From assembly GCA_046497225.1 (NCBI GenBank), contig JAWOGA010000060.1:1-35106 (forward strand): a stretch of 35,106 nt of DNA, written 5' to 3'. The position numbers and the translations under genes were made by a program. Below, piece after piece: positions 2,478 to 22,204 of the stretch. The notes beneath the pieces are model-generated. The model did no database searches and was not told the origin of the DNA. It saw nothing but the letters and a program-made list of their open reading frames with translations. This stretch comes from Candidatus Moraniibacteriota bacterium (GTDB taxonomy: Bacteria; Patescibacteriota; Minisyncoccia; Moranbacterales; DUUL01). Position 1 is the stretch's first letter, and each line of letters opens with the position of its first letter.

Positions 2478-3971
2478 ATGCAAGAACAAGATTTAAATTC
2501 TGAAAAGCAAGTACGTACCAGATTTGCGCCATCTCCAACCGGAATGGTTCATATTGGGAATTTAAGGACCGCTCTTTTCGCTTGGCTATTAGCCAAAAGC
2601 AAGGGAGGTGATTTTTTGGTGAGGATTGAAGATACGGATCAAAAGAGGTTTCAAGAAGAGGCGACTAAAAAAATCTTAGACGCTTTGGATTGGATCGGGA
2701 TAGATATTGATGAAGGCGTTTATTTAAATAAAGACAATCAAGTTAATCAAAAAGGCGGCTGGGGACCTTATATTCAATCTCAGCGACTCGGATTTTACAA
2801 AGAATATGCGGAGAAACTGATAGCGGAAGGAAGGGCTTATTATTGTTTTTGCGATTCTGATCGGCTAAAACAAGTCCGCGAAGAACAGCAATTGCAAAAG
2901 AAGCCACCGATGTATGATGGCGCTTGCAGGGAGACTTCCATTGAAGAGGCGCGCAGGAGAATAGAAAATGGAGAGAGTTGTGTTGTGAGATTGAAAGTTC
3001 CCAAAAATGAAAAAATTGAATTTAAAGACAAAGTTTTCGGAAAAGTTTCTGTGGATAGTGATACCGTAGATGATCAGGTTCTAATTAAGTCTGACGGTTT
3101 TCCTACTTATCACTTGGCAGTGGTGGTGGATGATTATCTAATGGGAATTACGCACATAGTTCGGGGGGAAGATTGGATTCCCAGCGCGCCCAAGCATGTT
3201 TTGTTATATAAGTTTTTGGGCTGGCCGGTGCCGGAATTTGTCCACTTGCCCAATGTTTTAGGAGAGAATAAAAAGAAATTGTCCAAGAGACAAGGAGACG
3301 TTAGCGTGGATGAATTTAATGAGAAAGGCTATCTCCCGGAGGCTATGATGAACTTTTTGGCTCTCCTGGGATGGAACCCAAAAAGTAACCAAGAAATTTT
3401 TTCCAAGGAAGATCTCATAAAAACTTTTGATGAAAAAGGTTTGCATAAAGCCGGAGCGGTGTTTGATTATAAAAAACTGGATTGGATAAACGGATATTAT
3501 ATTAGACAAAAAGATGATGCGGAAATTTATGAATTATGCAAGCCTTATTTGGAAAATTATTTAGCTGAAAACAATTATGATGCCGACGATGAGAAATTAA
3601 AAAAGATCATTATTGTAGAAAAAGAGAGAATGAAGAAATTGGCTGATATTACAGATAACATTCATTTTTATTTTACCTCGCCGGAATATGATAAGGATCT
3701 TTTGCGCTGGAAAGAAATGGGTGATAAAGATCTCAAAGAAGCTTTAGAGAAGATGGAGGAGGCTTTAAAACAAATTGATAATTTTCAAAACTTGGAAGAG
3801 ATCCAAGAAAAGTTGACTCACGCCTGCGGAGAACGGAAAGGAGAACACCTCTGGCCGTTAAGGGTTGCTCTTTCGGGCGAAAAAAGAAGCCCGAGTCCTT
3901 TTGAGATTGCTTGGATTGTCGGCAGGGAAGAGGCTATCAAGAGAGTTGATCTAGCTATAAAAAAGATTTAA
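2478..3971 (+). CDS. gltX: Glutamate--tRNA ligase
   Basis: VRTRFAPSPTG, HIGN, RIEDTD, KLSKR motifs. Confidence 0.97.
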   Translation: MQEQDLNSEKQVRTRFAPSPTGMVHIGNLRTALFAWLLAKSKGGDFLVRIEDTDQKRFQEEATKKILDALDWIGIDIDEGVYLNKDNQVNQKGGWGPYIQSQRLGFYKEYAEKLIAEGRAYYCFCDSDRLKQVREEQQLQKKPPMYDGACRETSIEEARRRIENGESCVVRLKVPKNEKIEFKDKVFGKVSVDSDTVDDQVLIKSDGFPTYHLAVVVDDYLMGITHIVRGEDWIPSAPKHVLLYKFLGWPVPEFVHLPNVLGENKKKLSKRQGDVSVDEFNEKGYLPEAMMNFLALLGWNPKSNQEIFSKEDLIKTFDEKGLHKAGAVFDYKKLDWINGYYIRQKDDAEIYELCKPYLENYLAENNYDADDEKLKKIIIVEKERMKKLADITDNIHFYFTSPEYDKDLLRWKEMGDKDLKEALEKMEEALKQIDNFQNLEEIQEKLTHACGERKGEHLWPLRVALSGEKRSPSPFEIAWIVGREEAIKRVDLAIKKI

Positions 3972-18619: not shown

Positions 18620-19684
18620 ATGAATTTACAAAAAATAGAAGAGATTAAAAAAGAATATGAGGAAATAAGAAAAGAACTGGAAAATCAGGATAATTTTTCC
18701 GACTCCGAGAAGATGAAAAAACTCAATCAAAGATTTAGCAATTTAGGGGAGATTGTTTCTAAGATTAATCAATGGGAAGACTTTAAACAACAACTTCAAG
18801 ATAATGAGGAAATAATTAACAATGAAAGCGATGAGGAATTGATAGAAATGGCCAAAGAGGAAAGTAAAGAATTGCAAAGTAAAATTGAAAACGTTGAAAA
18901 AAACCTGGAGCTTAGTTTGCTGCCCAAGGATCCTAATGATGAGAAAGATGTAATTATGGAAATTCGCGCCGGGGCCGGAGGAGATGAGGCCTGTCTTTTT
19001 GTGGGGGAATTATTCAGGATGTATTCCAAATATGCGGAAAACAATGGATGGAGAATTGAAATAGCCGATTCTCATGCTAATGAATTGGGAGGCTACAAAG
19101 AAATTATTTTTGAAGTTTCCGGAAAAGATGTTTACTCCAAATTGAAATTTGAATCAGGGGTGCATCGGGTACAGAGGGTTCCGGATACTGAGAAACAAGG
19201 CAGGGTGCACACTTCCACTATAACTGTAGCGGTTCTTCCTCAGGCTGAGCAAACTGATATTGAAATCAAGCCCGATGATTTAAGGATAGACACTTTTGCT
19301 TCTTCCGGACCGGGTGGGCAGTCTGTAAATACCACCAATTCAGCAGTTAGGATTACTCATCTTCCCAGCGGCGTAATTGTCTCTTGCCAAGATCAGAAAT
19401 CTCAAGGTCAAAATAAAGAAAAAGCTATGCAAATTCTTAGGTCTCGGCTTCTGGATAAAATAGAACAAGAAAAGAAGGAAAAGGAATCTAGCGAGAGGAA
19501 ACAGCAAATCGGAAGCGGAGACAGAAGTGAAAAAATCAGAACTTACAATTTTCCTCAAGATCGGATTACAGATCATCGCATTAAAAAAAGCTGGTCCAAT
19601 ATAGAAGAAATAATCAACGGACAGGTCGGGTTGATTATAAATAGTTTGCAAGAAGAAGAAATGAAACTTGCGACTAAATCCTAA
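18620..19684 (+). CDS. prfA: Peptide chain release factor 1
   Basis: EIRAGAGGDEA, ESGVHRVQRVPDTE (PxT), GPGGQSVN, IRTYNFPQ. Confidence 0.98.
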   Translation: MNLQKIEEIKKEYEEIRKELENQDNFSDSEKMKKLNQRFSNLGEIVSKINQWEDFKQQLQDNEEIINNESDEELIEMAKEESKELQSKIENVEKNLELSLLPKDPNDEKDVIMEIRAGAGGDEACLFVGELFRMYSKYAENNGWRIEIADSHANELGGYKEIIFEVSGKDVYSKLKFESGVHRVQRVPDTEKQGRVHTSTITVAVLPQAEQTDIEIKPDDLRIDTFASSGPGGQSVNTTNSAVRITHLPSGVIVSCQDQKSQGQNKEKAMQILRSRLLDKIEQEKKEKESSERKQQIGSGDRSEKIRTYNFPQDRITDHRIKKSWSNIEEIINGQVGLIINSLQEEEMKLATKS

Positions 19685-19822
19685 ATTCAAAATCCTAATG
19701 GCAAACTATGCCGCATAACGGGTCCCCATTGCCAATAAATTATCAAAAAGCGGCGGGAAATTTCAAATTATGAAAATTTGATTTGATTTATTGGTTTGAC
19801 GTTTGGATTTTGACATTTGTTA
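19671..19822. repeat. Heptamer-arm element between prfA and prmC
   Basis: Left arm cgactaa atcctaa attcaaa atcctaa tggcaaa (contains the prfA stop); right arm tttgacg tttggat tttgaca tttgtta. Confidence 0.75.
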
Positions 19823-19829
19823 TTTTAGA

Positions 19830-20741
19830 ATGAATATAAATAAACTTCTCTATAGGTCTAAAAAAATTATAGCTAAAAAAAATCTTTATAGCTCGGATAT
19901 TGATGCCGAGATTCTTTTATCTCATATTCTCAATGTATCCCGCGAATATGTTTTAATTCATCCCGAACTTGAAATTTCCAAGGAAGAAGAAAGCCGATTT
20001 ATGGATTTGGTTGAAAGAAGATCCCAAGGTGAGCCGGTAGCTTATTTAACCGAGTATAAAGAATTTTGCGGATTAGAGTTTGAAGTAAACAAAAACACTC
20101 TAGTTCCCCGCCCCGAGACGGAGATTTTGGTAGAAAAAACTTTGGATTATATAGAAAATAATTTCAATAAAAAAGATAAGTTGCGAATCTTTGACATAGG
20201 AACCGGCAGTGGGTGTATTATTACTGCTATAGCTCAGGAATTAAAAAACCTTGGTTTTTCAAATGTTGGTTTTTGCGCCGGAGACATCTCGAAAGCGGCT
20301 CTCAATACAGCCCGAAAAAACACGCAAAATCACCTGGAAAAACAAGAGATTATTTTCAAACGCGGTGATTTATTAAATCCTTTTATTGAAGAGATTAAAG
20401 GCTTTGGCGAGAAAGACCAGTTAATTATTTTAGCCAATCTTCCCTACTTGTCCGAGACGATTTATCAAAATTCCCCTGGAGATGTTCGGAATTTTGAGCC
20501 GAAGCTTGCCCTGGAGGCCGGTAAAGACGGCTTAGATTACTATAAAAGGCTTTTGGATTATGTCAAAGAATATGATTTAGACAAAAAAACCGGCTCAACT
20601 TGCCTTTTCCTGGAAATTTCTCCGGAGCAAGCAGAAAAGATAAAGGAGGTTGTCAAAGACAACTTCCCTGAATCGGAAATTGAAATTTATAAGGACTTGG
20701 CGGAAAGAGATAGGATTGTTAGAATCTTGAATTTGGAATAA
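19830..20741 (+). CDS. prmC: Release factor glutamine methyltransferase
   Basis: GEPVAYL, LVPRPETE, DIGTGSGCI, ANLPY, FEPKLAL..GKDGLDYY; downstream of prfA; ATG 19830. Confidence 0.95.
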   Translation: MNINKLLYRSKKIIAKKNLYSSDIDAEILLSHILNVSREYVLIHPELEISKEEESRFMDLVERRSQGEPVAYLTEYKEFCGLEFEVNKNTLVPRPETEILVEKTLDYIENNFNKKDKLRIFDIGTGSGCIITAIAQELKNLGFSNVGFCAGDISKAALNTARKNTQNHLEKQEIIFKRGDLLNPFIEEIKGFGEKDQLIILANLPYLSETIYQNSPGDVRNFEPKLALEAGKDGLDYYKRLLDYVKEYDLDKKTGSTCLFLEISPEQAEKIKEVVKDNFPESEIEIYKDLAERDRIVRILNLE

Positions 20742-20746
20742 TAGAT

Positions 20747-20964
20747 GTAATTGGTAATTGGCTATTTGTAATTTGGAGTTTACTTTGCAAAAAATTCGAT
20801 TTTAATCCCTTTATTTTTTTGGTGGAATAGGATAAAATGAATACTAATGACTAATGGCAAAGCTCAAATGACAATTCAAATTCAAATTCCTAAATATCTA
20901 ATTATTCATTTTTATCATTGGAATTTTGAGCTTGATTTGACATTAAGGTTTTGACATTAAGGTT
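20747..20964. repeat. Three heptamer arrays between prmC and smpB
   Basis: gtaattg gtaattg gctattt gtaattt ggagttt (20747-81); atactaa tgactaa tggcaaa gctcaaa tgacaat (20841-75); ttgacat taaggtt x2 (20937-64). Confidence 0.75.
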
Positions 20965-20976
20965 TACTGGTTATAT

Positions 20977-21426
20977 ATGGGAAAATTGGCTATCAACAAA
21001 CGAGCAAGATTTGATTATGAAATCCTGGAAACTTTCGAGGCCGGTTTGGTATTGAAAGGATATGAAGTAAAGTCTATCAAGACTGGCAGGATATCTATTA
21101 AAGGGGCGTTTGTAACAATCAGGGGCGAAGAATTGTATCTAACTAATGCCAACATTCCTCTCTACCAACATGCCGGAATTGTCGCCGATTACAATCCTTC
21201 TGCTCCCCGTAAGCTTATTTTACACAAAAAAGAGATCAAAAGATTAATTGGAAAAGCCAGAACCGAAGGCTTGACATTAGTACCTCTTTCAGTGTATAAT
21301 AAAAAGAATCTGATAAAGCTGGAATTTGCCTTAGCGAAGGGAAAAAAGCAACGAGATAAACGTGAAAATATCAAGAAAAGAGAGGAAAAAAGAAGAGTGG
21401 AAAGGATGATGAAAAATGTAAATTAA
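20977..21426 (+). CDS. smpB: SsrA-binding protein
   Basis: NKRARFDYEILETFEAGLVLKGYEVKS, RKLILHKKEI, GKKQRDKR. Confidence 0.98.
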   Translation: MGKLAINKRARFDYEILETFEAGLVLKGYEVKSIKTGRISIKGAFVTIRGEELYLTNANIPLYQHAGIVADYNPSAPRKLILHKKEIKRLIGKARTEGLTLVPLSVYNKKNLIKLEFALAKGKKQRDKRENIKKREEKRRVERMMKNVN

Positions 21427-21440
21427 TATTTTGAATTTAT

Positions 21441-21471
21441 TTAGAATTTAGGATTTTGAGTTTAGGATTTA
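21441..21471. repeat. Heptamer array directly upstream of tmRNA
   Basis: ttagaat ttaggat tttgagt ttaggat. Confidence 0.75.
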
Positions 21472-21478
21472 TATAGTT

Positions 21479-21875
21479 GGGGGTGTCGTGGATTCGACAG
21501 GTTGTGTTATTTGAAATCTGCAAGCCAAGTTATTGCATCTTGTAAAACTGCAATCCAAAAATAAGTGCAAACTTATTCGATAGAGCAAAAAGTGCTTTAG
21601 CTACGGCTTTTGCGCCTAAATTTGCTGCTGCTGTAGCTTAACAAATAGCTTCAGCCCGTCGACCGACTGATTCTCGATAGGTCGTACTCGGCGTCAACAT
21701 CGAGATGCAGCTCATTGTTTTCTCTTGGCATTGAGTCAAGTAACCTCAAGAGAGGGTCCGGTTATTGTTTTGTTTGTTTTTAGATAATCGGACTTAAACC
21801 AAAAACAAACTAAGCTTGTAGAAGGTTTCAAAATTCCAACACTGGACATGGGTTCAACTCCCATCACCTCCACCA
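21479..21875 (+). ncRNA. ssrA: tmRNA
   Basis: 5' GGGGGTG..GGATTCGAC; 3' GGTTCAACTCCC..CACCTCCACCA with G3.U pair; tag ORF 21567-21641 ANLFDRAKSALATAFAPKFAAAVA*; adjacent to smpB. Confidence 0.96.
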
Positions 21876-21888
21876 ATTTTCTCTAAAA

Positions 21889-22115
21889 ATCAAGACTGAA
21901 AGTCGCAGATTTTTAGCTAGAAAATTGAGTGTCCCGCTGGAAAAATGCCTTTCCAAGCAATAAATGTTCAGTGAAATGAATAATTTTGCAAGATTAAACA
22001 ATTCGCGATTAGCGTATTGCCCTTGAACAAATAAGCATTTTGGATAGCGGGAGACCATGCCTTTTCTACTATCAAGACTGAAAGTCGCAGATTTTTAGCT
22101 AGAAAATTGAGTGTC
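21889..22115. repeat. 45-bp perfect direct repeat (21889-21933, 22071-22115) enclosing a long imperfect hairpin
   Basis: ATCAAGACTGAAAGTCGCAGATTTTTAGCTAGAAAATTGAGTGTC twice, 182 bp apart. Confidence 0.9.
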
Positions 22116-22176
22116 TTGCCGGTTGTTTTGTTTTTTGGTTGTTCGGTGGATCGGCTTTATTTTTACAACGATGGTT

Positions 22177-22204
22177 TTTGTTACGTAGCATGCTACGTAA
22201 CAAA
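22177..22204. repeat. Perfect 28-bp palindrome upstream of infC
   Basis: TTTGTTACGTAGCA|TGCTACGTAACAAA; additional TACGTAGCAT half-site at 22217-22226. Confidence 0.88.

Follow-up and report, generated by a model that had tools for sequence, protein, structure and literature searches.

The transfer-messenger RNA (tmRNA) gene ssrA of a Candidatus Moraniibacteriota bacterium lies in a window of 35,106 nucleotides (nt), by which we mean the whole stretch of DNA analyzed here (assembly GCA_046497225.1, contig JAWOGA010000060.1, positions 1 to 35,106). The genome (G000; 963 kb in 89 contigs, here named C1 to C89; 36.6% G+C; 92% complete) has as its nearest named relatives metagenome-assembled genomes of Candidatus Moraniibacteriota and Patescibacteria. 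The window carries L31, prfA, prmC, smpB, ssrA, and infC in this order, and a 24-bp inverted repeat has one arm at the end of prfA and the other just before the start of the tmRNA (Table 1). Here we describe this repeat and the dispersed, hairpin-forming element, built of 7-nt units (heptamers), to whose family both arms belong.

Table 1. Genes, repeat arms, and element copies from prfA to ssrA, in window positions.
Feature	Position	Strand	Evidence or remark
prfA (release factor 1)	18620..19684	+	Pfam PCRF, 254 bits; RF-1, 148 bits
Left arm	19675..19698	+	5' terminus of element copy 1; profile positions 2-24, high posterior probability
Element copy 1, degenerate full-length, fills prfA-prmC gap	19676..19810	+	Profile 2-136, E 8.5e-7
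Local partner of left arm, 3' arm of copy 1	19794..19813	+	Pairs with 19687-19706, 20 nt, 85%
prmC (release-factor methyltransferase)	19830..20741	+	Pfam PrmC_N, 65.5 bits
Element copy 2, prmC-smpB gap	20840..20965	-	Profile 2-135, E 1.4e-4
smpB	20977..21426	+	Pfam SmpB, 177 bits
Sigma-70 consensus TTGACA-18 nt-TATAAT inside smpB	21271..21300	+	12/12 matches
Element copy 3, half element (left profile half only), terminus facing ssrA	21421..21470	-	Profile 2-51, E 3.4e-7
Right arm	21448..21471	-	Terminus of element copy 3
tmRNA (ssrA)	21479..21875	+	ARAGORN; Rfam RF00023, 161.8 bits

The inverted repeat had been noticed in a preliminary description of this DNA, whose observations stand. The arms are complementary at 23 of 24 positions (96%) with 1749 nt between them, and the single mismatch (T19686 versus G21460) is a U.G wobble in plus-strand RNA. 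The stop codon of prfA lies within the left arm (in-frame TAA at 19682-19684; the TAA at 19675-19677, with which the arm starts, is out of frame with prfA), and 7 nt separate the right arm from the tmRNA. The further arms reported inside the interval (pairs I2, I5, I11, and I12) are register-shifted heptamer matches, and the interval also holds another copy of the element, copy 2. Each arm consists of 3.4 heptamer units with a 7-nt period (left arm, TAAATCC TAAATTC AAAATCC TAA), and prfA contributes the first unit of that arm with its final codons and stop (AAA TCC TAA).

A search of the window with up to three mismatches returned exactly these two arms, and none of 100 dinucleotide shuffles contained any match. 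In the genome as a whole (963,086 bases), these two copies are the only occurrences of the 24-mer with up to two mismatches. The shuffle control, however, is the wrong null and overstates the significance, because distant intergenic pairs of this genome share such matches: when 728 intergenic regions were each compared with all the others, 203 pairs of distant regions had at least 24 nt in common with at most one mismatch. At the same threshold, four inverted pairs of regions lie within 5 kb of each other, where 0.75 would be expected from position alone, and direct pairs number 12, against 0.74 expected.

Heptamer repeats are abundant throughout this genome. Tandem Repeats Finder made 485 period-7 calls, and the self-match of intergenic DNA peaks at lags of 7, 14, and 21 nt, whereas coding DNA has no such peak. 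Strict period-7 arrays are 22 times denser between genes than within them (0.61 versus 0.028 per kb; 124 of 145 arrays are intergenic), and lag-7 arrays are about ten times commoner than lag-8 arrays (0.150 versus 0.016 per kb). The commonest unit type is AAAATTC (28 of 144 arrays), and units of the AATCCTAA type are uncommon (62 sites). Contigs C2, C9, and C77 start or end in heptamer arrays. Loci from the candidate phyla radiation (CPR) contain 55 arrays in 511 kb, with at least one array in 24 of 68 loci, and non-CPR loci contain two in 77 kb, in 1 of 12 loci. We tried and rejected the idea that arrays rich in T (TTG type) are promoter marks upstream of genes and those rich in A are marks of 3' ends (by nearest gene: downstream, 32 T-rich and 25 A-rich; upstream, 20 of each), and among TTG-type k-mers none is biased toward the sense strand upstream of genes.

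The exact 22-nt core shared by the arms, AATCCTAAAYTCAAAATCCTAA, occurs in at least 123 stretches of metagenome contigs. The 80 loci that we fetched from these matches represent 72 distinct contexts. Their left flanks are unrelated, and their right sides are conserved (ATCCTAAACAAAT...CAAAAC, a loop, and then GTTTTGAATTT), with further heptamers, a short loop, and complementary heptamers following ATCCTAAACAAAT. Because the left flanks are unrelated while the right side is conserved and folds into a hairpin, the 22-mer is the terminus of a dispersed palindromic element. A right end is recognizable in 30 contexts; these 30 elements are AU-rich and 85 to 237 nt long (mostly 123 to 158 nt), with AATCCTAAATTCAAAATCCTAA at the left end and a sequence close to TTAGGATTTAGAAATTAGGATT at the right end. 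When 13 of the elements were folded, each with about 25 nt of 5' flank (222 nt), all formed long hairpins, with minimum free energies (MFEs) of -34 to -78 kcal/mol.

In 18 of the 72 contexts, an open reading frame (ORF; at least 80 amino acids, or at least 40 if running off the locus) starts within 60 nt of an element end, six of them at exactly 9 nt and some with doubtful TTG starts. This spacing is suggestive of an element end that serves as a portable leaderless promoter in a subset of contexts only. The proteins encoded on the host contigs are 27 to 77% identical to those of this genome (46 loci with a match; median of best matches, 51%; for example, PrfA 54% and LepA 52%), and deeply diverged bacteria therefore have these same 22 letters in common.

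As a separate observation, one distantly related lineage (metagenome contig L129; PrfA 54% identical) has the element terminus 10 nt upstream of the prfA start codon (positions 1485-1520); the element family thus adjoins prfA in two lineages, at the 5' end of the gene in one and at its 3' end in the other.

To place the element in this genome, we built a profile from 22 full copies and searched it with nhmmer, with the reversed genome as a control. The genome yielded 42 matches at E <=1 (about 20 at E <0.01; several represent one site on both strands) and the reversed genome two, the best with an E value of 0.17. Three copies lie between prfA and ssrA (Table 1), and the profile assigns both arms of the inverted repeat to the same model positions. 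The prfA-prmC spacer, which copy 1 fills, has an MFE of -38.8 kcal/mol (z, -2.6), and the left arm has a partner of its own in the 3' arm of that copy; the sequence of this local partner is largely common to G001, one of two sister species.

The same family is present inside rRNA genes. Among 61 relatives, exact copies of the 22-mer are found twice in this genome, once in G001 (upstream of ssrA), once in the second sister species, G002, and in no others. The copy in G002 is a hairpin of about 130 nt inside the 16S gene, which measures 2075 nt against a model of 1533 positions. Four metagenome loci were tested with Rfam models; three (L113, L122, and L179) lie within 23S genes, and the fourth (L184) does not. 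Single rRNA genes can hold several copies, with five profile matches in one 23S gene and three or four in the G002 16S gene. The rRNA references themselves contain the element, which was masked before flanks were compared; 6 of 71 outer flanks then match rRNA, and most copies therefore lie elsewhere in their genomes.

The rRNA genes of the genome under study carry related inserts. In its 23S gene, a heptamer palindrome of 122 nt stands in place of 2 nt of the model (C38, about 36733-36855; model position about 2240), and a further insert of 179 nt lies at model position about 1760 (C38, about 37313-37502). Heptamer blocks also occur in its 16S gene (C89, 5275-7232), and one of these blocks resembles a 23S insert. 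One 23S insert is 83 to 90% similar to C89:7009-7123 and C36:1343-1531. The genome also has a gene for RNase III. In the main text of a 2024 survey of CPR rRNA inserts, short inserts at known 23S sites are taken to be intervening sequences (IVSs) cleaved by RNase III (PMC11270868). Because the arms of the inverted repeat do not themselves lie in rRNA, they are relatives of IVSs rather than IVSs.

We compared the locus with G001 and G002 and with two more distant loci in which prfA lies upstream of smpB (L031 and L036), taking synteny from PrfA and SmpB matches and from direct reading of the sequence. The likely start of prmC (ATG at 19830, in frame with an ORF listed from 19803) was also compared with those of G001 and G002. 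PrfA and SmpB of G001 are 77% and 88% identical to those of the window. The last 52 nt before its tmRNA match the window at 45 positions, and within them the left arm of the window is found in exact reverse complement. After its prfA stop, G001 has a single AATCCTAA unit, and about 9 nt could pair; the left arm of the window has 14 nt (two units) more directly after the stop codon, a difference that could be a gain in this genome or a slippage loss in G001, with G002 uninformative on the point. G002 lacks both arms, and the hairpins in its two gaps are built of another heptamer type (AAGATAC), again common to the two gaps; prfA-prmC and prmC-smpB-ssrA can be read in G002, and the same parts are found in G001 on two contigs. 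The prfA stop is followed by a GC-rich hairpin in L031 and by no spacer in L036, neither with a heptamer repeat. Judging from these sequences, the hairpin habit of the gaps is kept across species, and the 24-bp long-range pairing is not.

The prmC-smpB gap also differs in length between the species. It measures 0.8 to 1.0 kb in the sisters (G002, L002 730-1495; G001, L003 460-1495) versus 235 nt here, and the sisters have in it a conserved stretch, richer in GC and structured in appearance, which the gap of this genome lacks. This stretch could be a small RNA or small ORFs.

We consider it likely that the two arms are the conserved terminal modules (AAATCCT-AAATTCA-AAATCCT-AA) of two neighboring copies of one dispersed heptamer hairpin element, similar to IVSs and to miniature inverted-repeat transposable elements (MITEs). 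Copies 1 and 3 would lie in opposite orientation in neighboring gaps, with the 5' end of copy 1 supplying the left arm and the end of copy 3 the right arm. Each complete element is predicted to fold on itself into a long AU-rich hairpin, as would members of the same family at helix positions in 16S and 23S rRNA, from which RNase III is believed to excise such inserts, a processing step that we infer. The 23/24 match therefore points to common descent from a strongly conserved family terminus, and selection for base pairing of the prfA stop with the 5' end of the tmRNA would not be its cause. That two copies lie so near each other would most likely reflect local copying or homogenization between neighboring gaps, a step that we likewise infer. 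Among the readings offered in the preliminary description, that of two arms of one element comes closest: the arms do share a family terminus, but they belong to two different copies in two gaps.

Several points weigh against this explanation. The alignment of copy 1 to the profile is confident only in its first 23 nt and weakly so in its last 20 or so (accuracy, 0.52), and the left arm is predicted to form a stronger duplex with the right arm (-30.4 kcal/mol) than with its local partner (-25.2 kcal/mol for 19687-19706 with 19794-19813). The only two well-kept termini of the genome face each other 1.75 kb apart, an arrangement that is rare under random placement. Conservation of the 22-mer in the metagenome set is given by construction, because the set was gathered with the exact 22-mer, and only the conserved continuation past the 22-mer and the unrelated flanks count as independent evidence there. 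No target-site duplication was established from the filled sites, in which the bases directly preceding the terminus differ from copy to copy (tt, gg, aa, ac, and others). A search of the genome, which is 92% complete, for the transposase domain Y1_Tnp (PF01797) found no match; it covered this one transposase family. Finally, the right half (the 52-nt spacer before the tmRNA) is 87% identical between this genome and G001, which equals or exceeds the identity of the tmRNA (84%) or of smpB (78.5%), and this conservation hints that the right half may have some function of its own.

Of the alternatives, the one that survives best, though we consider it unlikely, is a long-range RNA stalk. Here prfA, prmC, smpB, and ssrA would be read through into one RNA in which the arms pair over 1.75 kb, as flanks of rRNAs do in their operons; cleavage by RNase III would end the prfA message at its stop codon, release a message of prmC and smpB, and leave a pre-tmRNA with a 7-nt leader. 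The arms would then be the two halves of the basal stem of an RNase III-processed IVS-type module, and the pairing would amount to a species-specific coupling, built from a mobile repeat, of termination and ribosome-rescue genes, an interpretation that we regard as improbable. In its favor, each arm is the best partner of the other anywhere in 18620-21900 (-34.9 kcal/mol when the duplex is extended), both arms lie at gene borders, and RNase III is encoded in the genome. The same module also closes hairpins in rRNA genes, where, according to the main text of the survey cited above, short 23S inserts are taken to be cleaved by RNase III (PMC11270868). Yet the preliminary description's proposal of such a stalk fails in the comparison with other genomes: the pairing is neither kept nor covarying in G001, G002, L031, or L036. 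The local partner of the left arm, 87 nt away, would moreover form first during transcription, and the MFE structure of the spacer uses it. That the fixed 22-nt terminus is a recognition or processing signal of a CPR-wide element colonizing rRNA helices and gaps between genes is much more likely than the stalk.

Transcript data bear on the same question. The read evidence consists of low-depth Logan contigs from four runs, and among the RNA contigs none fully spans either gene gap, so that cotranscription of prfA and ssrA is hypothetical; stretches that the contigs leave uncovered carry no weight as evidence. One RNA contig, from a single study, spans 21303-21478 with no mismatches and ends 1 nt short of the tmRNA 5' end; this end fits a leader cut by RNase P and is a weak hint of one, and breaks in the assembly graph could also explain it. 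The stalk is further disfavored by the perfect sigma-70 consensus inside smpB, a candidate ssrA promoter that could drive ssrA alone. Its hexamers are also read in G001 and G002, where they lie within conserved codons. In and near the right arm, the -10-like sequences TAGGAT (21463-21468) and TATATA (21470-21475) are both poorly spaced with respect to 21479, and a promoter scan reported none at the right arm.

A pure coincidence, in which unrelated arrays of the AAAT(C/T)C type happen to match within a small sequence space, appears very unlikely to us. In its favor, 0.75 inverted pairs of this quality are expected within 5 kb per genome, and AAAATTC-type units are the commonest. Against it, the 22-mer is specific and marks the terminus of many copies in which the sequence past it is conserved too, both arms fall on the same positions of the profile, the right arm is almost unchanged in G001, and AATCCTAA-type units are uncommon in this genome. 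We find it more improbable still that the whole interval is one element with cargo, whose loop came to carry prmC and smpB, whether through capture of a cassette or because they were inserted between its arms. The two arms do have the facing orientation of element ends, and inverted heptamer arrays bracket genes elsewhere in the genome (the PF05635 gene on C34 and genes on C9 and C10); however, G002 has the gene order prfA-prmC-smpB-ssrA without either arm, every gap holds a separate element copy that has a local partner, no insertion scar was found, and prmC and smpB are housekeeping genes. An invertible segment acted on by a site-specific recombinase, also raised in the preliminary description, is scarcely credible, since only the inverted repeat itself speaks for it, whereas recombinase, integrase, and transposase domains are absent from the 31 window ORFs scanned, the low-depth contigs of the four runs contain no inversion joints and include one DNA contig that joins the right arm to the tmRNA in the reference orientation, the orientation of the genes in G001 and G002 is, where readable, that of the window, and inversion would place two essential genes on the strand opposite to their neighbors.

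With the arms assigned to two copies of a dispersed element, the family can be set beside known repeats. Correia elements (Neisseria miniature insertion sequences, NEMIS) and similar MITEs are about 100 to 150 bp long, with inverted ends and many dispersed intergenic copies; their transcripts form hairpins that RNase III can cleave, and their ends can lie just upstream of genes. The heptamer element is likewise a small noncoding unit with inverted ends, many dispersed copies, and unrelated flanks. It differs in its heptamer-built arms, in that no target-site duplication was established and no partner transposase was found by the searches for Y1_Tnp in the genome and for transposase domains in the 31 window ORFs, and in that copies occur in rRNA genes and across distantly related lineages. 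Repetitive extragenic palindromic (REP) sequences and the bacterial interspersed mosaic elements (BIMEs) that accompany REP-associated tyrosine transposases (RAYTs) are also short extragenic palindromes dispersed in a genome; REPs, however, are GC-rich, 20 to 40 nt long, and tagged with GTAG, and no Y1 (RAYT-type) transposase was found in this genome. Processing stalks of rRNA operons consist of complementary flanks 1.5 to 3 kb apart around the mature RNA and are conserved and covarying. The inverted repeat resembles them in its flanking complementary sequences; unlike theirs, its pairing occurs in only one of the species compared.

The rRNA IVSs are also close in kind, as members of the element family are hairpin inserts inside 16S and 23S genes; the two arms, by contrast, lie between protein-coding and tmRNA genes. 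The main text of the CPR insert survey (PMC11270868) contains the words "repeat" and "hairpin" zero times and mentions neither a heptamer build nor a shared terminus. Short tandemly repeated repetitive (STRR) sequences of cyanobacteria and the TAACTGA repeats of Beggiatoaceae are described as direct tandem arrays of one heptamer (PMC4679880). They resemble the arrays here in their 7-nt units and in being intergenic and often directly upstream of start codons, and related unit types (for example, TAACTGG) are present in this genome. Repeats of this kind, with a single direct heptamer, belong to Cyanobacteria, Beggiatoaceae, or Bacteroidetes; the element departs from them in its mixed units, palindromic arms, fixed terminal module, presence in rRNA genes as well as gene gaps, and CPR host. 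In our searches of the literature, we found no description of a CPR-wide heptamer hairpin element in rRNA helices and gaps between genes.

The link between prfA and the tmRNA is most likely incidental, an accident of two repeat copies, and says little about any coupling of termination with ribosome rescue. The more useful result is the repeat family, in which the same hairpin occurs in gaps between genes, beside gene starts, and several times in 16S and 23S genes, and in which a 22-nt intergenic sequence is identical in bacteria with proteins of only about 30 to 65% identity. Either a mobile element that passes between CPR lineages or a strongly constrained processing signal is suggested by these findings. 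In practical terms, heptamer repeats break assemblies and lengthen CPR rRNA genes.

Other repeats were observed near ssrA and infC. Just 3' of the tmRNA, a 52-nt direct repeat (94% identical; 21889-21940 and 22071-22122) is part of a unit of about 180 to 200 nt. This unit is present as three tandem copies in G001 (L003, about 2590-3040) and as two in G002, and it also occurs at C37:9934-10191; it could represent remnants of attachment sites beside ssrA or a small RNA gene. Upstream of infC, a perfect 14+14 palindrome with the halves TTTGTTACGTAGCA and TGCTACGTAACAAA occupies 22177-22204. Near-identical copies on contigs C21, C26, and C65 make it look like a shared operator or binding site.

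Elsewhere in the genome, heptamer arrays also accompany larger units. A dispersed repeat of about 330 nt, with at least seven copies (C38:20570-20897, C71:4346-4673, C82:1477-1804, and C84:6800-7127, with others on C40, C68, and C85), consists of a conserved core between heptamer arms in inverted orientation (AAATGACAAAATCCTAATGACAAATCAAGCTCAAAG and its inverse); it could belong, as a larger member, to the class of the heptamer hairpin element, or it could be a small RNA gene. The single gene for a PF05635 protein (23S rRNA IVS protein; C34:17763-18077) is wedged between two genes and bracketed by inverted heptamer arrays, ATTTAAGATTTA and TAAATCTTAAAT (TGATTTAAGATTTATG / TCTTAAATCTTAAATC; C34:17700-18150, L249). 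Two further single genes, at C9:4610-7068 and at C10:226-2826, stand between long, composite blocks of heptamers that are inverted relative to each other, with arms of 41 nt (98% identical) on C10. These two loci share about 300 nt of 3' flank that includes a hairpin (AAATACGACAA...TTGTCGTATTT), and contig C9 ends inside such a block.

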